A DNA stretch of 24,498 bases from a virus (lineage: Duplodnaviria > Heunggongvirae > Uroviricota > Caudoviricetes): the IMG/VR virus record IMGVR_UViG_2684622579_000003; one strand, written 5' to 3'. This document shows, piece after piece, positions 2,683 to 13,237 of this stretch; the first letter of the stretch is position 1, and each line of letters starts with the position of its first letter. The notes under the pieces are model-generated. The model had not been told where the DNA came from. It saw only the letters and a list, made by a program, of their open reading frames with translations, and made no database searches. The translations under genes were made by a program, and so were the position numbers.

Positions 2683-3606
2683 TTAATGTAAACAACTTAT
2701 AATAACTTTTGCAATAAACTCAATGTCTGTAAGCGAACATTCAAAAGAGTGATTTTGGGATGAAATATAAACTCGTCCTTTAGGTAGTCGAGTTATCATT
2801 CTAAATGAATTCTCTCCATCAATATTTACTAGCCACTTACCATCATGTACATCTTTAAAACCCATTTCACATATTAATTCAGAGTCTTCGGTAGATACTA
2901 CGAATGCATTTTTTAAATTGGAAGGTAGAAAGCATGGGTCAAATAAATATGAGCCATCATTTATTAACTTGCCATTGATTAATACTTTTTTCACTAATGT
3001 TAAAGTATCTTTATTTTTTGCGTTTTTCATTTCTCCTGTACCAAATGAAATCCATTCAATAGAATGGCCCGTTTCTATTGCACACTGCAAAACCCAGTCT
3101 GCAGGAAAAATGTCACGCATGTATCGTGTGGCTAATGTGCTTTTTGAAATACCTAGGTGATCAGCTAATGCTTGGCGCGTTTTGTAACCGTAAGCCTCGA
3201 CAATTCGTTCTATTGTTGCCTTACCCCCTCGGTTAAAATTCATGAGTTTTTCATTATCGAACTTTATAGTGGGAATGTATACTTCATTGCAAAGGCCATT
3301 AACGGCATGTTTTTCAGAATATTGCTCTGATGAAGGAGCAGTATCTGAACCAAGAACTAACCATTCAATTGATGCTCCTGTTTCTATGGAACATATAACA
3401 ACCCAATCTGCAGGAAAGGTATTACGTGCATATCTGTTGGCCATAGTACTTTGGGAAATACCTAGATGATTACATAATGCCTGTCGTGACTTGAAGCCAT
3501 AGGCTAGGAGTATACGCTCAATAACTTTTTGCCCTCCACGATTCTGCATAACTATTGCTTTCAGATCGTTTTTGATATGGCTAAATTTTAATTTTTGAGT
3601 TGACAT
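2683..3606 (-). CDS. CI-repressor paralog with tandem duplicated N-terminal HTH domain plus CI-like C-terminal domain (307 aa)
   Basis: Two consecutive copies of the module IER..AYG.K.RQAL..HLGIS.ST.A.RY.R..FPA.WV..C.IETG.S.EW, followed by a C-terminal region alignable to the C-terminal half of the adjacent 191-aa CI (..DG.Y.FD..FLPS.LKN.FV....S...IC...F.D..DGKW...ID.E...R.ITRLP.GR...). Internal Met at residue 122 (codon 3241-3243). Confidence 0.75.
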   Translation of the reverse strand: MSTQKLKFSHIKNDLKAIVMQNRGGQKVIERILLAYGFKSRQALCNHLGISQSTMANRYARNTFPADWVVICSIETGASIEWLVLGSDTAPSSEQYSEKHAVNGLCNEVYIPTIKFDNEKLMNFNRGGKATIERIVEAYGYKTRQALADHLGISKSTLATRYMRDIFPADWVLQCAIETGHSIEWISFGTGEMKNAKNKDTLTLVKKVLINGKLINDGSYLFDPCFLPSNLKNAFVVSTEDSELICEMGFKDVHDGKWLVNIDGENSFRMITRLPKGRVYISSQNHSFECSLTDIEFIAKVIISCLH

Positions 3607-3656: not shown

Positions 3657-4232
3657 TTACTCAAAGTACTTAACTGTTATGCTTATAATTTTTCCAATAA
3701 TTTCGATTTCTTCTTTTTTACATTCGAAAGCCCTATTTCCACCTTCAACTAAGATTCTTCCACCAGGTAAACGAGTGATATCGCGGATTGTTACTTCGGC
3801 ATCAATACTTATTACCCATTTGCCGTCACGAATATCGTTAAACTCTTTATCGCAAATAAAAACGGAATTGTTATCGGTGATTACAAACGGATTTTTGAGC
3901 GTAGATGGTAGAAATTCTTTATCGAAAATATAAAAACCATCTTCCTGCAAGGTTCCATCAGATAATACATATTTAACGACTTCCATAGTATTTGTATTAC
4001 CTGAAGTTTGCTTTGAACCATGTCCGGTCGTGAGCCAGTTAAGCGAGGCGCCCGTTTCAAGTGCGCACTGGATTACCCATTCAGCAGGGAATGAGTCACG
4101 CATATAGCGTGTGGCGAGAGTACTTTTAGAGATTCCTAAGTGATCGCACAACGCCTGTCGAGTCTTGAAGCCATATGCTTCTACCATGCGCTCTATAGCG
4201 CCTCGTCCGCCTTTCTCCAAATTCATGGTCAC
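3657..4232 (-). CDS. cI: Immunity repressor CI, phage-186 type (191 aa)
   Basis: Length and sequence recall 186 CI (N-terminal HTH ..EAYGF...LA.HL.IS.S.L..RY.R......CALETGA.L.WL.TG). Located immediately upstream of int and divergent from apl/cII. GGAG-like RBS upstream of the ATG. Confidence 0.85.
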   Translation of the reverse strand: MTMNLEKGGRGAIERMVEAYGFKTRQALCDHLGISKSTLATRYMRDSFPAEWVIQCALETGASLNWLTTGHGSKQTSGNTNTMEVVKYVLSDGTLQEDGFYIFDKEFLPSTLKNPFVITDNNSVFICDKEFNDIRDGKWVISIDAEVTIRDITRLPGGRILVEGGNRAFECKKEEIEIIGKIISITVKYFE

Positions 4233-5929: not shown

Positions 5930-6156
5930 TGGCTGATGCAATGGATCTCGTACAGCAGCGCGTTGAAGAAGAACGCCAGCGTCATATCCGTGCTGCCCGC
6001 GCCAAAACGCCGGGCGTATCCCGCGTGCTTTGCATTGAGTGTGAAGCACCAATTCCGCCAGCACGACGTCGCGCCATTCCGGGTGTGCAGCTTTGCATTA
6101 CCTGTCAGGAAATCGCAGAGCTGAAAGGCAAACATTACAACGGAGGTGCTGTATGA
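5929..6156 (+). CDS. TraR/DksA-family C4 zinc-finger protein (75 aa)
   Basis: C-x2-C ... C-x2-C (CIECEAP...CITCQEIA) with a preceding basic helical region, as in phage TraR/DksA-like proteins. Confidence 0.7.
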   Translation: MADAMDLVQQRVEEERQRHIRAARAKTPGVSRVLCIECEAPIPPARRRAIPGVQLCITCQEIAELKGKHYNGGAV

Positions 6157-7010
6157 GCACCATCCTGAAATGGGCGGGTAATAAAACCGCCATTATGCCA
6201 GAACTGAAAAAATACCTTCCTGCTGGCCCGCGACTGGTTGAACCTTTCGCGGGTTCTTGTGCTGTGATGATAGAGACGGATTACCCCAGCTATCTTGTTG
6301 CGGATATTAATCCTGATTTAATCAACCTCTATAAAAAGGTTGCTGCTGATTGCGAGGCGTTTATATCTCGTGCCAGAGCTTTATTTGAGGAAGCAAACAG
6401 GGAGGTGGCTTATTACAACATAAGGCAGGAGTTTAATTACTCCACTGAAATTACTGATTTCATGAAAGCGGTATATTTCCTGTATCTCAATCGTCATGGT
6501 TACCGTGGGTTATGTCGCTATAACAAGAGCGGGCATTTCAACATTCCCTACGGGAATTATAAAAATCCGTATTTCCCTGAAAAAGAAATTCGCAAATTTG
6601 CAGAAAAAGCCCAGCGAGCAACGTTTATCTGCGCCAGCTTTGATGAAACGCTGGCGATGTTGAAGGCGGGGGATGTGGTGTATTGCGATCCGCCTTATGA
6701 CGGTACGTTTTCCGGCTATCACACTGATGGCTTCACTGAGGATGACCAGTATCACCTGGCATCCGTTCTTGAACATCGATCATCTGAAGGTCATCCGGTC
6801 ATTGTTTCTAACAGTGACACATCCCTGATTCGTTCGCTGTATCGCAATTTCACTCACCACTACATCAAGGCAAAACGCAGCATCGGCGTGTCGGCTGGCG
6901 AGAGTAAATCTGCAACAGAAATCATTGCTGTTTCCGGGGCGCGCTGCTGGGTGGGATTTGATCCTTCGCGTGGCGTGGATAGTTCTGCTGTGTACGAGGT
7001 GCGTGTATGA
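6153..7010 (+). CDS. dam: DNA adenine (N6) methyltransferase, Dam-like orphan MTase
   Basis: Motif I (EPFAGSCAV) near the N-terminus and catalytic motif IV DPPY (VYCDPPYDG); N-terminal KWAGNK typical of Dam. Start placed at the ATG at 6153; the track ORF begins further upstream at 6093. Confidence 0.85.
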
Positions 7011-9421
7011 GTCATGATGATATGAGCAACTCTAGCGGCTTTAACGAGGCCGCTGCAGCATTTTCATGGAACGGCCCGAAAAAGGCCATTAACCCTTATC
7101 TGGACCCGGCGGAAGTTGCGCCGGAGTCTGCACTTTCAAACATGATCACTCTGTACGCTGCCGATAACGAGCAGGAACAGCTGCGCCGCGATGCACTGAG
7201 TGAGCAGGTCTGGGAGCGTTATTTCTTTAATGAATCCCGTGATCCTGTCCAGCGCGAAATGGAGCAGGATAATCTCATTAGTCGGGCAAAGCTGGCGCAT
7301 GAGCAGCAGCGTTTTAACCCGGACATGGTCATTCTGGCGGACGTCAGCGCCCAGCCCACCCACATCAGCAAGCCGCTGATGCAACGTATCGAATACTTCA
7401 GCAGCCTGGGCAGGCCAAAGGCTTATTCCCGCTATTTGCGTGAGACGATTAAGTCATGTCTGGAGCGACTGGAGTATGTACGCGACAGTCAGCTATCCGC
7501 TTCTTTCCGTTTTATGGCAAGCCATCAAGGGCTTGAGGGCCTGCTGATCCTGCCTGAAATGAGTCAGGATCAGGTAAAACGCCTGTCCACCTTGGTAGCA
7601 GCGCATATGAGCATGTGTCTTGAGGCCGCTTGTGGTGATTTGTATGCCTCCGATGACGTTAAGCCAGAAGAAATCCGCAAGACATGGGAAAAGGTGGCAG
7701 CGGAAACCCTGCGTCTGGATGTTATCCCGCCTGCGTTTGAGAAACTCCGTCGGAAAAGAAACCGCCGCAAACCCGTGCCCTATGAACTCATACCGGGTTC
7801 GCTGGCACGTATGCTTTGCGCCGACTGGTGGTATCGAAAATTGTGGAAGATACGTTGCGAATGGCGGGAAGAGCAGTTGCGTGCTGTCTGCCTGGTCAGC
7901 AAAAAAGCATCTCCCTATGTCAGCTATGAAGCAGTGACGCATAAACGTGAGCAGCGCCGCAAGTCGCTGGAGTTTTTCCGTTCTCATGAACTGGTGAACG
8001 AAGACGGCGACACGCTGGATATGGAAGACGTGGTAAACGCCAGCAGCAGCAACCCGGCGCACCGCCGCAATGAGATGATGGCCTGTGTTAAAGGTCTGGA
8101 GCTTATCGCGGAAATGCGTGGTGACTGCGCCGTTTTCTACACCATTACCTGTCCGTCACGTTTCCATTCTACGCTCAATAACGGCAGACCAAACCCAACC
8201 TGGACAAATGCGACGGTAAGACAAAGCAGCGATTATCTGGTCGGCATGTTTGCTGCATTTCGTAAGGCTATGCACAAAGCCGGGTTGCGCTGGTATGGCG
8301 TGCGGGTGGCTGAGCCGCACCATGACGGTACTGTGCACTGGCATCTCATGTGTTTCATGCGCAAAAAAGACCGCCGCGCCATTACTGCATTGTTGCGTAA
8401 GTTTGCCATCCGTGAAGACCGCGAGGAACTGGGCAATAACACGGGTCCACGCTTTAAGTCTGAGCTGATAAACCCGCGCAAAGGAACGCCGACAAGCTAC
8501 ATCGCGAAATACATCAGTAAGAACATTGACGGACGTGGTCTGGCTGGCGAGATCAGCAAGGAAACGGGTAAATCCCTGCGTGATAACGCCGAATACGTTA
8601 ATGCCTGGGCGTCTCTGCATCGTGTTCAGCAGTTCCGCTTCTTTGGTATTCCGGGGCGTCAGGCGTACCGTGAACTTCGCTTGCTGGCTGGTCAGGCGGC
8701 AAGGCAACAGGGTGACAAAAAAGCAGGTGCGCCGGTACTGGATGACCCGCGCCTTGATGCCATCCTGGCTGCCGCTGATGCTGGCTGTTTTGCCACCTAC
8801 ATCATGAAGCAGGGCGGCGTACTGGTTCCCCGCAAATATCACCTTATCAGAACAGCTTATGAAATTAACGAAGAGCCGACCGCTTATGGCGATCACGGTA
8901 TTCGTATTTATGGCATCTGGTCACCCATTGTACAGGGCAAGATCTGCACTCATGCAATGAAATGGAAAATGGTTCGTAAGGTCGTTGACGTTCAGGAGGC
9001 GGCAGCCGACCAGGGCGCTTGCGCCCCTTGGACTCGTGGCAATAACTGTCCCCTTGCTGAAAATTTGTACCAACAAGGGAAAGACAAATCAGCTGATGGG
9101 GATACCAGAACGGATATCACCCGTATGGATGACAAGGAGTTGCACGATTACCTGCACAGTATGAACAAAAAAGAACGCCGGGAACTGGCTGCAAGGTTAC
9201 GCCTGGTGAAACCGAAACGGCGTAGAGACTACAAACAGCGAATTACAGACCATCAACGACAGCAGCTCGTCTATGAACTGAAGTCCAGAGGATTTGATGG
9301 CAGCGAGAAAGAGGTCGATTTACTCCTTCGCGGCGGCAGCATTCCGTCAGGAGCAGGCCTGCGTATTTTCTATCGGAACCAGCGTTTGCAGGAAGATGAT
9401 AAGTGGCGGAACCTGTATTAA
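7007..9421 (+). CDS. A: Replication initiation protein A (rolling-circle HUH endonuclease), 804 aa
   Basis: HUH motif ([10 protein letters not shown]) and paired-tyrosine motif ([10 protein letters not shown]). Size and position match P2/186 gene A. Start overlaps the dam stop (ATGA). Confidence 0.9.
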
Positions 9422-9513
9422 TTACGCGGATTAACAATTCGTGCTCTTAATAATACCAGGCATATCAGGCTGATGAACGTAAAAAAACGTTTTACATCAG
9501 TAAGATTATTATA

Positions 9514-9533
9514 TACTGTAAATATAAACAGTG
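9514..9533 (+). promoter_or_regulatory. LexA (SOS) box TACTGTAAATATAAACAGTG overlapping a promoter-like region
   Basis: Perfect CTGT-N8-ACAG with AT-rich spacer, read directly from sequence. Upstream TTTACA (9491-9496) and TATACT (9512-9517) resemble -35/-10 elements. About 40 bp upstream of a small ORF with a strong RBS. Confidence 0.7.
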
Positions 9534-9574
9534 GTTATACATACAGTATTGCTTGTGGTGTCATAGGAGGAAAG

Positions 9575-9763
9575 ATGCAGGACTATTTTTTGGAGTCTTT
9601 GAAGCTCCAACGCATTGATTTTTTTCTTAAGCTTGTAGCGGCTAGTGAGTGTAGTGATGAAGAGAAGGGGCTGGCCCTGCAGTGGGTTTCTGAACTGACA
9701 GATGAACTCATGGCAAAAATCAGAAGCCACGAATACAACCGCTCAATGGATGTCATCAGCTGA
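9575..9763 (+). CDS. Small hypothetical protein (62 aa from the ATG at 9575), first gene of the putative SOS-controlled operon
   Basis: AGGAGG RBS at 9564-9569, then ATG at 9575, within track ORF 9473..9763. Lies downstream of the LexA box. Confidence 0.55.
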   Translation: MQDYFLESLKLQRIDFFLKLVAASECSDEEKGLALQWVSELTDELMAKIRSHEYNRSMDVIS

Positions 9764-9773
9764 GGGGACTTTT

Positions 9774-10007
9774 ATGCGCATTGAAATAATGATCGATAAA
9801 GAGCAGAAGATTAGCCAGTCTACCCTGGACGCCCTTGAATCAGAGCTTTACCGCAATCTGCGCCCCCTGTATCCCAAAACGGTAATTCGTATCCGTAAAG
9901 GTAGCTCTAACGGTGTGGAACTGACCGGACTGCAACTGGACGAAGAAAGGAAACAAGTGATGAAAATTATGCAGAAGGTGTGGGAAGACGACAGCTGGCT
10001 GCATTAA
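9774..10007 (+). CDS. dinI: DinI-family protein (77 aa)
   Basis: MRIEI.I.K ... L..EL.R ... KIMQKVWEDDSWL closely resembles E. coli DinI (MRIEVTIAK ... ETWES.DDWF). Start at the ATG at 9774 within track ORF 9702..10007. Confidence 0.75.
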   Translation: MRIEIMIDKEQKISQSTLDALESELYRNLRPLYPKTVIRIRKGSSNGVELTGLQLDEERKQVMKIMQKVWEDDSWLH

Positions 10008-10391
10008 GAAACGTTGCTGGCGTCTGAACTTGCTTCTGGCGTCAGCAAGGTTGAACAACGAGCTATGCGAGGCGTTAGCCATCTGATCAAAAGACATCAA
10101 ATATCATATTGTATATCGTGGTCAAACGCTGGAAACAATCATTCCCGATCAGAGGGGCTTCTTTCAATGTCCAAAAGAGTGAGATAGAGGATACAGGATG
10201 GGAAGAGCTTTTGATTAATTATCGTCCAAGTTTTTCAAAAGCTTCTTATCTGGCGGTCGATACATGATTTACTGTTGGATATGGTATTTAAAATTAATCT
10301 TTACACTGTGGTATATGCAGAATAGGATATTATCAATACAATCAAACTGTTTTCATACGGTTATTAATATTGCAATGTTATAGGTAATGTC

Positions 10392-11510
10392 ATGTATCTT
10401 TTCAAGTATTACCGTCCGGACTTCTTCTTCGAGAAAGCTATTCGTTATAATGAATTATATTTTTCCGCTCCTGCGCAATTGAATGATCCCAATGATCTCA
10501 ATATAGATTATCGCTTCGATAATAAATTGAAATTATGGGATATTTTATTGCGTTCTCCTTGCGATAAATCCTATAAAAATTTGAGTCACATATTGGATTT
10601 GAGTAATTTGAAAATACATAAGGGATTGAATCGTATTTTTAGAGGAAAAAAAATAAAAAGTAGCATTGAGTCATTAGATAGCCTGTTTGACTCACACGTT
10701 GATGAGATACGTAAGATCATAGATGATGGTTTACTACCTATCAATGTGATTAATTCTGCTATTTATGGAAATATTCCTGAACCACGCCAATATTTAGTTT
10801 CACTTTGCGAGAACAGTATCAAAGAAAGGTTGTATAGGAAAATAGTTCCTGCAGTATTCAGTGTGTCATTTTCAGCTAATGCGTTAGATCGTATGATGTG
10901 GGCGCATTATGCTGCTGGCTTTAGTGGTTGTGTTGTGATTTATGAAACGCAGGATTTTAATATTGATGGTATATCCTATACTGGAATGAAGCTAAGAGAA
11001 AATTTATTTTCATCAGATAAATTTAATTTTCCAGTTAAGCCAATAAAATATAGTAATCAGGCTAAAGAGGTTTCACTTCTAGACCCAAGCGCAAATGTTG
11101 CAGAGTTATTTTTAACTAAAAATAGATTTTGGAGATATGAAGCTGAATATCGAATGTTTATTCCGGAGGCAAATGCAGGAATAGGGAGTGAGCGGCATGT
11201 TCAAAGACGCGTAAATCGAAATATTGGACATATTTTTCATCATGATGCTAATGTTGTTAAAGGGATCATTTTTGGTCCTAGAATGTGTGAAATGAAAAAA
11301 GAAAGCATATGGAATTGTATCAAGTCAAATATGGAGAATTCAAATTCAACAATATGTTATTTTTTTGACTCTGAGTTATCAGCATCAGGAAAGATTACTA
11401 TTTCAAAAGGGCAACGAGCGGAAAAAATGAAAAATTTCACTTTGTTCAGGAACAAGTTAAGTCAGACGGAAATGGCTAAAGTTTTGAAGGAAATTGGCAT
11501 TACGAACTAA
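10392..11510 (+). CDS. DUF2971-like protein (372 aa), AT-rich cargo gene at the tin/old-equivalent locus
   Basis: N-terminal signature LFKYYRP....... ELYFSAPAQLNDPNDL matches the DUF2971 hallmark as I recall it. Very low GC; sits between replication gene A and cos, where P2 carries tin and old. Confidence 0.6.
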   Translation: MYLFKYYRPDFFFEKAIRYNELYFSAPAQLNDPNDLNIDYRFDNKLKLWDILLRSPCDKSYKNLSHILDLSNLKIHKGLNRIFRGKKIKSSIESLDSLFDSHVDEIRKIIDDGLLPINVINSAIYGNIPEPRQYLVSLCENSIKERLYRKIVPAVFSVSFSANALDRMMWAHYAAGFSGCVVIYETQDFNIDGISYTGMKLRENLFSSDKFNFPVKPIKYSNQAKEVSLLDPSANVAELFLTKNRFWRYEAEYRMFIPEANAGIGSERHVQRRVNRNIGHIFHHDANVVKGIIFGPRMCEMKKESIWNCIKSNMENSNSTICYFFDSELSASGKITISKGQRAEKMKNFTLFRNKLSQTEMAKVLKEIGITN

Positions 11511-11576
11511 CCTAACAACAGTGCATGCCTATGCTGCCTGAATTTGCATGACCGTTTGAGGATCGTTTTTGCTAAG

Positions 11577-11604
11577 GCCCGCCAGAACTGGCGGGCTTTT
11601 GCGT
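11577..11604 (+). terminator. Rho-independent terminator (GCCCGCCAG-AA-CTGGCGGGC followed by TTTTG)
   Basis: 9-bp GC-rich perfect stem with U-tract, read directly; about 65 bp after the DUF2971 stop. Confidence 0.7.
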
Positions 11605-11645
11605 GGATCAGGCACCTGCATGAAAACCACTACACAAAGCGGGCA

Positions 11646-11664
11646 GGCGTGGCGGGGATACGAG
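11646..11664. other. cos: Probable cos site (cohesive-end region) of P2/186 type
   Basis: GGCGTGGCGGGGATACGAG resembles the 19-nt cohesive ends of 186/P2 (recalled as GGCG(T/A)GGCGGGGAAAGCA.). Correct position between the accessory locus and portal gene Q. Confidence 0.55.
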
Positions 11665-11869
11665 CGCGCACTCTGGGGTAAAATGGTCAAAATCCACCGC
11701 AATTTACTGGCTCGGGAACGTAGTTAGTTTTGTAGGTATAAACGGCTCTCACGTTAGATAGGCATGCAGGATGTGTTAAATCGTTGTGATGAAGTTAACG
11801 GTGACTGAGACAGTTTAGGTCTAAGATATAACTTCTGGGTTAGTTAAAAATTGGAATAGTAAGACATTT

Positions 11870-12166
11870 ATGAAAACTACTTATAGCTATGATTTTCAAT
11901 ATATGCGCAAAGGTCAGGATCGCCCTGATGATGATGGAGAGGTTGTAGGGTGTAATTCAGAAGACAACTCGCTTTTGATGCTTCCAAATGTGGGAGACTA
12001 CGTAACAATTACGAATAAGGGTGGGCGTGCTCAATTTGATGGGCGGGTGAAAACAAGGCTTTTCAATTACCTACGCATTGCTGATGGTCATGTTCATTGC
12101 TCCATTTGCATTGTAGTTGAGGAAGTTGATATGGACTCCGTATGGGGGGCACTAATTAAAGAATAA
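11870..12166 (+). CDS. Hypothetical protein (98 aa), AT-rich moron between cos and Q
   Basis: ORF with low GC, followed immediately by a hairpin terminator. No recognisable motif; two Cys pairs (C28, C77/C80). Confidence 0.5.
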   Translation: MKTTYSYDFQYMRKGQDRPDDDGEVVGCNSEDNSLLMLPNVGDYVTITNKGGRAQFDGRVKTRLFNYLRIADGHVHCSICIVVEEVDMDSVWGALIKE

Positions 12167-12172
12167 TAGAAT

Positions 12173-12188
12173 GCCTGCAAATGCAGGC
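12173..12188. terminator. Bidirectional hairpin terminator (GCCTGCA-AA-TGCAGGC) between the 98-aa ORF and Q
   Basis: 7-bp inverted repeat flanked by A/T-rich runs on both sides, lying between the convergent stops of ORF 11870..12166 (+) and Q (-). Confidence 0.6.
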
Positions 12189-12196
12189 GCTTTAAT

Positions 12197-13237
12197 TTAC
12201 TCAGAAATATCTAAGTTGTAAGATTCAAAGCAAATCACTTTTTCACCTAGCCAGTTGTTCAGCTCTTGCAGCCGCTTTTGCAGTGGCATCAGTTCATTGC
12301 GGACAAACACTCGACTAGCCTTCTCCACATCCCCAAACCCCCCGACATTATTAGGCATTATCCCCATCATTTGTGGCGGCACACGATGCGCCGCCATCAT
12401 GTCGTCCCGGCTCACGTTCTTGATATTCAGGAACTCATCCTTCGCCGCCACTTCTGACAACGGGATAATCTGAAGCCCGTCCTTTTTACCGTTAGGCGAG
12501 TACATAAACAGGTTACGGAAGTTACCAGGACCTTTGGCGCTTTTCATCGCATTGCGGAGGTTGTTCACATCCTCCTGGTTCTGCGCAGCATCGGTCATGT
12601 ACATGATGAAGCCTGCATGACTGCCGTTAATGTAATACTTGCGGCGGAACAGCGTGGCGGACTCGTTGAGCAGAGCTGACGGAATGGCAGAAAGATAACC
12701 GGGCAGGCCGTAGATCTCCTGGTTAATGTCCGGTTCCATCAGATGAAAAATGCTGCCTTTCGTGAACTGATACGGCTGGGTTGTCATACCGTATTGCACA
12801 AACCAGTAGGTATCCAGGTCTAACCCGCGTCGGGTGTATTTTGCCAGTGCAGGCTCAAGGGCGATAACTTCACCGAAGCGGTTCGTGCGTTTCTCCAGGT
12901 AGGCGTTACCAAAAACCAGATAGTCCTGCACAAAACGCGAAAAAGCCTGCTGGCTGAGCAGCGGGTGAGGGATGTAGGTGCTGGTCAGAATGTTGCACTT
13001 CACTGCAATCGGTGAGCTGTGATGCACGGCGGCGCGGAAGGTTCGCGCCAGTCCGTCGAAACTCACAGGCGGCTCATACCAACGATCCATCTGTACGCAT
13101 TCCACATAGTCCAGCAGTTCGCGGCGGTCCAGAACAGGAACGGGATCACCGAAGCTGAATGCTTCGGCTGAAGTCTGGCTTTTATGCTGGATCTGTTTCG
13201 TCGACGCAGCGCGGTTCTTCTTACTCTTTCCCATCAA
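12197..13237 (-). CDS. Q: Portal vertex protein (P2 gpQ-like), 346 aa
   Basis: Size, position adjacent to cos, orientation opposite to the O-N-M operon, and ATGA coupling to the terminase gene match P2 Q. Confidence 0.85.
   Translation of the reverse strand: MMGKSKKNRAASTKQIQHKSQTSAEAFSFGDPVPVLDRRELLDYVECVQMDRWYEPPVSFDGLARTFRAAVHHSSPIAVKCNILTSTYIPHPLLSQQAFSRFVQDYLVFGNAYLEKRTNRFGEVIALEPALAKYTRRGLDLDTYWFVQYGMTTQPYQFTKGSIFHLMEPDINQEIYGLPGYLSAIPSALLNESATLFRRKYYINGSHAGFIMYMTDAAQNQEDVNNLRNAMKSAKGPGNFRNLFMYSPNGKKDGLQIIPLSEVAAKDEFLNIKNVSRDDMMAAHRVPPQMMGIMPNNVGGFGDVEKASRVFVRNELMPLQKRLQELNNWLGEKVICFESYNLDISE

Follow-up and report, generated by a model that had tools for sequence, protein, structure and literature searches.

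A Fels-2/DuoHS-type SOS-induction operon with a predicted Tum-type antirepressor, a separate dinI-like gene and a double LexA operator in a P2/186-like prophage

The DNA analysed here, a stretch of 24,498 nucleotides (nt) from a tailed virus (Caudoviricetes; IMG/VR record IMGVR_UViG_2684622579_000003), which we refer to at its full length as the window, is a P2/186-like prophage (Peduoviridae). Directly 3' of its replication gene A, which ends at position 9421, lies a separate rightward transcription unit made up of a promoter (9491-9519) and two open reading frames (ORFs; 9575-10007), in agreement with a preliminary description of this DNA that had placed a LexA-boxed operon just downstream of gene A. 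The first ORF (ORF62; tum, or tumA-type; 9575-9763, + strand) encodes a protein of 62 amino acids (aa) and the second (tumB-type; 9774-10007, + strand) a DinI-like protein of 77 aa. This unit is the Fels-2/DuoHS-type (186-like) SOS-induction operon of the P2 family, an operon that is already known, and every defining feature that we tested was found in the window. We regard it as very probable that a LexA-repressed promoter here drives a 62-aa antirepressor of the Tum type, directed against a 186-type CI repressor, together with a separate modulator of RecA from the DinI family.

The promoter, which is the equivalent of p95 of phage 186, has as its -35 hexamer TTTACA (9491-9496, + strand; read from the sequence), which is invariant across the window, DuoHS and Fels-2, is also TTTACA in SopEPhi, and matches in position the annotated -35 of p95. 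The probable -10 is TACTGT (9514-9519, + strand), at a spacing of 17 bp, assigned by analogy with 186 p95: the same hexamer, lying inside the LexA box of that phage, is annotated in its record as the p95 -10. TATACT at 9512-9517, with a 15-bp spacer, is an alternative. A generic sigma-70 promoter scan did not call the SOS promoter, because TACTGT agrees with TATAAT at only 3 of 6 positions. In the DNA that separates gene A from the -35, we also noted a short AT-rich inverted repeat (GAACGT-AAAAAA-ACGTTT, 9474-9493, + strand) that runs into the T-run of the -35 region and is kept in DuoHS and Fels-2; judging from its sequence, it may act as a weak terminator that shields the SOS promoter from transcription running out of gene A.

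The LexA box that had been described as overlapping a promoter-like element does cover TACTGT. This distal box (box 1, TACTGTAAATATAAACAGTG, 9514-9533) matches the consensus at 17 of 20 positions with both the CTGT and the ACAG cores intact, and it is the single occurrence of CTGT-N8-ACAG in the window. The core alone is expected 0.35 times per window and was present in 28 of 100 shuffles, whereas the 20-mer consensus TACTGTATATATATACAGTA, allowing 3 mismatches or fewer, had box 1 as its sole match in the window and was matched in none of the 100 shuffles. DuoHS and Fels-2 have box 1 unchanged, and each of the 12 relatives examined has a LexA box in front of its tum-like ORF.

Box 1 is joined by a second, proximal box that the preliminary description had missed. 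Box 2 (CAGTGGTTATACATACAGTA, 9529-9548) overlaps box 1 by 5 bp, sharing CAGTG with it, so that the two form a 35-bp double operator at 9514-9548; it is perfect on the right side and degenerate on the left, with GTGG for CTGT. The window contains the composite 34-bp pattern TACTGT-N9-CAGTGG-N8-ACAGT a single time, and none of 100 shuffles contains it. Among the relatives, the double box is present in Fels-2, DuoHS, SopEPhi, YpM_MLG42 and ST437-OXA245phi4.1, while 186, PSP3, ESSI-2, ESSI2_ev015, ENT90 and both YenM phages have a single LexA box and no double box. An ORF of the tumA family lies directly 3' of the double box in 114 of 120 IMG/VR contigs among the matches listed, and two of the six exceptions have no downstream sequence. 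Double boxes of colicin genes are bound by two LexA dimers, with tight repression and late induction as the outcome (PMC2994835); by analogy, two dimers would occupy the double box of tum, which would repress the promoter more tightly than in the single-box relatives and raise the threshold for induction. We found no description of a double-operator architecture at tum promoters in the searchable literature.

ORF62 starts with the ATG at 9575 and stops at 9761-9763. Its Shine-Dalgarno sequence, AGGAGG (9565-9570, + strand), lies 4 nt 5' of the ATG and is kept in DuoHS and Fels-2, which upholds the earlier reading of a 62-aa ORF with a strong ribosome-binding site. An extended reading of 96 aa from an ATG at 9473, found in some annotations, was rejected since it would start upstream of the -35 and the promoter. 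Database starts of several other tum-like ORFs likewise fall upstream of the LexA box or promoter and are likely mis-annotated, as in ENT90 (1459-1698; start at 1459, box at 1465-1480) and ST437-OXA245phi4.1 (596-889), in addition to the 96-aa calls for the window ORF.

The product of ORF62 is labelled 'hypothetical protein' in RefSeq (WP_001154431.1) and 'unknown function' in PHROGs (phrog_698); Pfam holds no family for it, and a PDB sequence search with it found nothing. Its AlphaFold2 model (predicted local distance difference test score, pLDDT, 88.6) has helices at 2-23 and 28-61 with a conserved Cys26 in the loop. Foldseek against the PDB returned nothing below E 0.28 for this model, and a generic two-helix hairpin of this kind, having no PDB match, gives no functional hint.

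The relationship of ORF62 to Tum became visible at the level of profiles. An exhaustive HMMER search for the ORF62 family gathered 67 representatives, down to ~35% identity, and 29 of them plus the window sequence were used to build a hidden Markov model (HMM). The family HMM matched residues 5-48 of 186 Tum with 36.5 bits (E 3.5e-10, database of 1652 sequences), where the best score in controls of 1000 shuffles and 647 decoy ORFs was 8.7 bits, and it also matched the Tum-like ORFs of Yersinia and Erwinia phages. Profile-profile comparison of the ORF62 family with Tum by hhalign gave a probability of 97.3% (E 2.6e-11, 37 columns). The core common to both is (Q/E)R(I/V)-x-h-h-A-(R/K)-L-x6-C-x3-(D/E)-(K/R)-x-h-A-L-x-h-h-(A/S)-E-h. 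The alignment with 186 Tum that the preliminary description had suggested as a check fails with BLASTP, which returned no alignment of ORF62 with Tum, and succeeds with the HMM and hhalign. Searches by tblastn with either antirepressor half recovered only its own sub-family. PSP3 TumA was undetected by the ORF62-family HMM (4.5 bits), with only a C-x7-AL-x2-hA motif aligning, so we claim no direct homology to TumA beyond this short motif. These sequence comparisons make ORF62 a homologue of the N-terminal half of Tum, the half with the antirepressor function.

At their C-termini, many of the distant small proteins of the Tum-like kind share a glycine-rich, conserved tail (...KNPQxGG..SGGG.., ending (F/L)Q), which is missing from the 62-aa protein of the window. 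No dinI gene follows the glycine-tailed proteins of ESSI2_ev015 (701-913) and YenM_324, the two members whose context the analysis covered. The tail might be a degradation or processing signal.

The second gene begins 10 nt after ORF62 in a different frame, and its Shine-Dalgarno sequence (GAGGGG, 9762-9767) overlaps the tum stop codon. Its assignment to the DinI family, proposed in the preliminary description, is borne out by a match over the full Pfam DinI profile (PF06183; positions 1-63 of 63, 81.3 bits against a cutoff of 24.2, E 6.6e-23), by an alignment from end to end with the E. coli DinI structure 1GHH (E 2.7e-6) and by the presence of the acidic C-terminal W-E-D-D-S-W helix. The protein is 78% identical to PSP3 TumB and 41% identical to residues 71-145 of 186 Tum, in keeping with the earlier statement that the C-terminal part of Tum is DinI-like. 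By analogy with E. coli DinI, it would bind RecA filaments and modulate co-protease activity. The antirepressor and DinI-like parts are thus two adjacent genes in the window, each with its own start and Shine-Dalgarno sequence. Both evolve under purifying selection, with ratios of nonsynonymous to synonymous substitution rates (dN/dS) of 0.06-0.12 at dS near 1, which indicates that the split form is functional rather than a gene in decay.

Homology to DuoHS and Fels-2 stops exactly at the dinI stop codon (10007), and directly 3' of it lies a GC-rich hairpin with no T-run (10010-10052, + strand; fold -25.5 kcal/mol, marginal z of -2.36). The generic scan called no intrinsic terminator after the dinI-like gene, and an Rfam scan of 9300-12300 found nothing. 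The operon transcript probably ends at or near this hairpin, which may be the operon end, a 3' stabiliser or part of a cargo insertion junction.

The presumed target of the antirepressor is the 191-aa immunity repressor of the 186 CI type (3657-4232, - strand), which has the Pfam domains Phage_CI_repr and Phage_CI_C and aligns along its full length with 186 CI (31% identity, E 2e-38); its identity to DuoHS CI is 91%. Both the antirepressor half and CI have strongly diverged from 186, whereas the DinI half is much better conserved. This pattern is what we would expect if the antirepressor co-evolves with an immunity-specific CI and the DinI part acts on the conserved host RecA.

Adjoining CI is a second CI-like gene (2683-3606, - strand), whose 307-aa product combines two tandem Phage_CI_repr helix-turn-helix domains with a single Phage_CI_C domain behind them and shares 57-58% identity with the CI next to it. 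Klebsiella P2-like phages have comparable long paralogues alongside an ordinary CI (4LV2017, 61% identity), and this exact cargo was found in 17 E. coli genomes, that of the enteropathogenic strain E2348/69 included. The paralogue may serve as a heteroimmune repressor, or it may act as a decoy for Tum proteins from other phages.

Functional evidence comes from DuoHS, the prophage of E. coli HS, whose tum gene (ECHS_RS04495) is 100% identical to ORF62. In the Phollow study (Nat Microbiol 2025; PMC12055606), 'tum', listed under this locus tag in the supplement, was deleted in frame; the tum deletion and a lexA(Ind-) allele each abolished mitomycin-C-induced lysis and virion foci. The wording of that paper is only that tum 'inhibits pro-lysogenic regulators' (PMC12055606). 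For phage 186, two papers cite the finding that Tum binds CI and inhibits its DNA binding (cited in PMC3121763 and PMC7708051). The preliminary description had offered two alternatives, one in which the 62-aa product is the antirepressor and DinI modulates RecA, and one in which the two proteins act together. Homology to the N-terminal half of Tum, identity to DuoHS tum and the loss of SOS induction upon its deletion favour the first. The second, as an obligatory two-protein mechanism, fits poorly with four relatives (ESSI-2, ENT90, YenM_324 and YenM_201.16) that keep a small ORF behind the LexA box with no dinI gene after it, which makes the small ORF the constant component of the module.

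We propose that in the lysogen LexA, probably as two dimers, would sit on the double operator (9514-9548) and occlude the -10 and the start region, leaving the promoter silent. Upon DNA damage RecA would become active, LexA would cleave itself and the promoter would fire, giving one transcript from which Tum and the DinI-like protein would be made, probably with translational coupling. The Tum/TumA-type hairpin would then bind CI reversibly and titrate it off its operators, as in 186, and the loss of CI would derepress the early lytic promoter, so that the prophage would be induced without repressor cleavage. The DinI-like protein would most likely act on RecA filaments, tuning the strength or duration of the SOS response, and would be dispensable for antirepression itself.

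Several points weigh against this scheme. The functional experiments were made on DuoHS and not on the window prophage itself, and since the deleted tum lies 10 nt upstream of dinI, an effect of that deletion on dinI translation is not fully excluded. Direct binding to CI is established for 186 Tum only and would extend to this lineage by analogy; the homology of ORF62 to Tum, with no similarity by BLASTP and PSP3 TumA missed by the HMM, runs through profile methods and bridging sequences. At the promoter, the -10 is assigned by analogy and the generic scan missed the site, and the left half of box 2 is poor, GTGG standing where CTGT would be expected, so that its occupancy by LexA is only presumed. 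Finally, non-polar deletions of dinI in Gifsy prophages had no measurable effect on induction (PMC3121763), so that any role of the DinI-like gene is a putative one.

Other explanations of the locus have to be set against these data. ORF62 could be needed for induction without sequestering CI, by acting on Apl, CII, the CI paralogue or a host factor, or by needing the DinI-like protein as a partner. That CI binding is known only for a Tum whose antirepressor half is very divergent from ORF62, and that the DuoHS paper speaks of 'pro-lysogenic regulators' only, would be compatible with another target. We nevertheless consider this improbable: ORF62 is homologous to the N-terminal half of Tum, the cognate 186-type CI is present, and the joint divergence of antirepressor half and CI next to a conserved DinI half fits a specific partnership between the two. 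As for a DinI partner, a DinI-like motif does occur within 900 nt downstream in 93 of 120 IMG/VR double-box contigs among the matches listed, but relatives with the small ORF alone exist. It is very unlikely that the roles are reversed, with the DinI-like protein as the true inducer, for instance through RecA filament stabilisation leading to repressor cleavage, and ORF62 as an accessory or leader peptide. The DinI domain is admittedly the sole part with a database annotation, and automated annotation calls whole Tum proteins DinI; however, deletion of the small ORF alone abolishes DuoHS induction (PMC12055606), 186 Tum inhibits CI DNA binding rather than working via cleavage (186 GenBank record and literature), and the Peptidase_S24 match of the window CI is sub-threshold. 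Moreover, some relatives do without dinI altogether, and the Gifsy dinI deletions left induction unaffected.

The different frames of the two ORFs, their distance of 10 nt and the fused gene of 186 could also suggest that they are the debris of a frameshifted, inactivated tum through which the prophage is no longer SOS-inducible. This is hardly tenable given that each ORF has its own Shine-Dalgarno sequence and start and a low dN/dS, that 1124 of 5426 complete E. coli genomes have the split form, as do phages of Klebsiella, Salmonella and Yersinia, that it is functional in DuoHS, and that 186 itself makes a separate DinI-like product. We give next to no credence to the idea that box 1 arose as a palindrome by chance in the AT-rich DNA between genes and that the promoter is outside SOS control. 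An 8-base core found in 28% of shuffles would by itself allow it; the 20-mer and the 34-bp double-box pattern, each absent from all 100 shuffles, speak against it, as do the recurrence of a box at the corresponding site in all 12 divergent relatives and the block of induction by lexA(Ind-) in DuoHS, whose operator is identical (PMC12055606).

Beyond the antirepressor scheme preferred here, we tentatively put forward, at a confidence a little short of even, that phages of the Fels-2/DuoHS type depart from the 186 design. A two-dimer operator of the colicin type would drive tum in these phages; compared with the single-box relatives (186, PSP3, ESSI-2, Yersinia), their SOS threshold would be higher or later and their spontaneous induction lower, and the free DinI-like protein would feed back on RecA and time the commitment. 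The double colicin-type operator is a possible reason for differing induction thresholds among related prophages. The 571-bp module is found in the 1124 E. coli genomes mentioned above, roughly one fifth of the complete ones, and decides at what moment prophages of a family very common in E. coli, Salmonella and Klebsiella kill the host and spread. As the function of the module is already established, the practical value lies in annotation: ORF62 can now be labelled as a Tum/TumA-type antirepressor.

The remainder of the map is that of a P2-family prophage with cargo. The integrase gene (1-1053, - strand) is followed by a gene for a KAP-family NTPase (1140-2657, - strand), the 307-aa CI-like protein and CI; apl-like, cII, fil, DUF5347, DUF2732 and DksA/TraR zinc finger genes lie between CI and the Dam methylase gene (6153-7010), after which come replication gene A (7007-9421), the SOS operon, the cargo genes and the portal gene (12197-13237, - strand). 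The KAP-family protein, a P-loop NTPase of 505 aa encoded between the integrase and CI genes, matches the PADLOC candidate defence family PDC-S20 (E 8e-78), with weaker matches to PifA and QatA; its gene is probably anti-phage cargo residing in a hotspot of the P2 type. The variable cargo site that separates the SOS operon from the portal gene holds a gene for a 372-aa DUF2971 protein (10392-11510, + strand), which matches the PADLOC candidate defence family PDC-S31 (E 9e-24) and is followed by a DUF4062 gene in one close E. coli relative. It lies ~340 nt 3' of the operon, behind an AT-rich spacer that has its own promoter-like site and no LexA box; other CTGT-N9-CAG matches in the window are at chance level and give no evidence for LexA control of this cargo gene. 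Between the DUF2971 and portal genes, a 98-aa ORF (11870-12166, + strand) matches phrog_12676 ('unknown function', E 5e-52) and has no Pfam or PADLOC match.

Among known systems, DuoHS is the closest to the window. It has the same gene order (CI, dam, gene A, tum, dinI) and shares the RefSeq proteins WP_001154431.1 (62 aa) and WP_001217575.1 (DinI-like, encoded by ECHS_RS04500), and its promoter and double LexA operator are identical, with one base differing between box 2 and the Shine-Dalgarno sequence. The two prophages differ between int and CI, where DuoHS has only a small hypothetical ORF (ECHS_RS23290) in place of the KAP NTPase and the second CI-like gene, and after dinI, where DuoHS and Fels-2 have other ORFs and the window has the DUF2971 gene. 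Fels-2, from another host genus (Salmonella LT2), has the same double operator, an identical DinI protein and, in STM2728, a counterpart of ORF62 with 96.8% identity; a 243-codon ORF after its dinI is absent from the window. STM2728 and STM2726.1 make up the 'split tum' of Fels-2, attributed to Bunny, Liu and Roth 2002 as cited in PMC3121763. According to Lemire et al. (PMC3121763), Fels-2 and PSP3 both have tum split in two, and the upstream gene of PSP3 carries the antirepressor activity. PSP3 shows the same two-gene layout after gene A behind a LexA box, its record annotating tumA as 'UV induction of prophage' and tumB as DinI-like, but with a single box and only 3 nt between the ORFs, against a double box and 10 nt in the window.

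The preliminary description had pointed to a LexA-controlled tum of 186 in the equivalent position, and the 186 record indeed has p95, the LexA site and tum directly after gene A, as in the window. Both phages have a LexA box covering a TACTGT -10, an antirepressor domain followed by a DinI-like domain, and a CI of the 186 type as target; the 186 record says of Tum that it 'inhibits CI DNA binding'. In 186, however, a single 146-aa protein contains both domains, and its gene has nested internal starts, one of which gives the DinI-like C-terminal part alone ('modulates SOS induction' in the record), whereas the window has two separate genes; 186 also has a single LexA box, and orf97 after tum. 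Gifsy-1, -2 and -3 have a LexA-repressed operon with a DinI homologue and a small antirepressor (gfoA/gftA) acting against a non-cleavable repressor (PMC3121763), but these are lambdoid phages with another repressor family, and their operons have dinI first, in reversed order.

The operator itself resembles those of colicin and bacteriocin plasmids. With the Fels-2 version of the 43-bp operator region as query, 1204 plasmid records matched, and in the one inspected (NZ_CP024884, ColE1-type) 43 nt separate the operator from a colicin-like bacteriocin gene downstream, after which come genes for immunity and lysis. The colicin/bacteriocin operators are ~90% identical to the 35-bp operator of the window along its full length, the shared CAGTGG junction included, and box 2 of Fels-2 is identical to the plasmid bacteriocin box at 20 of 20 positions; as the flanks of the window and bacteriocin operators are unrelated, this likeness fits common descent and convergence on LexA contacts equally. 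The plasmid operators drive a toxin and lysis operon, whereas the operator of the window drives a phage antirepressor.

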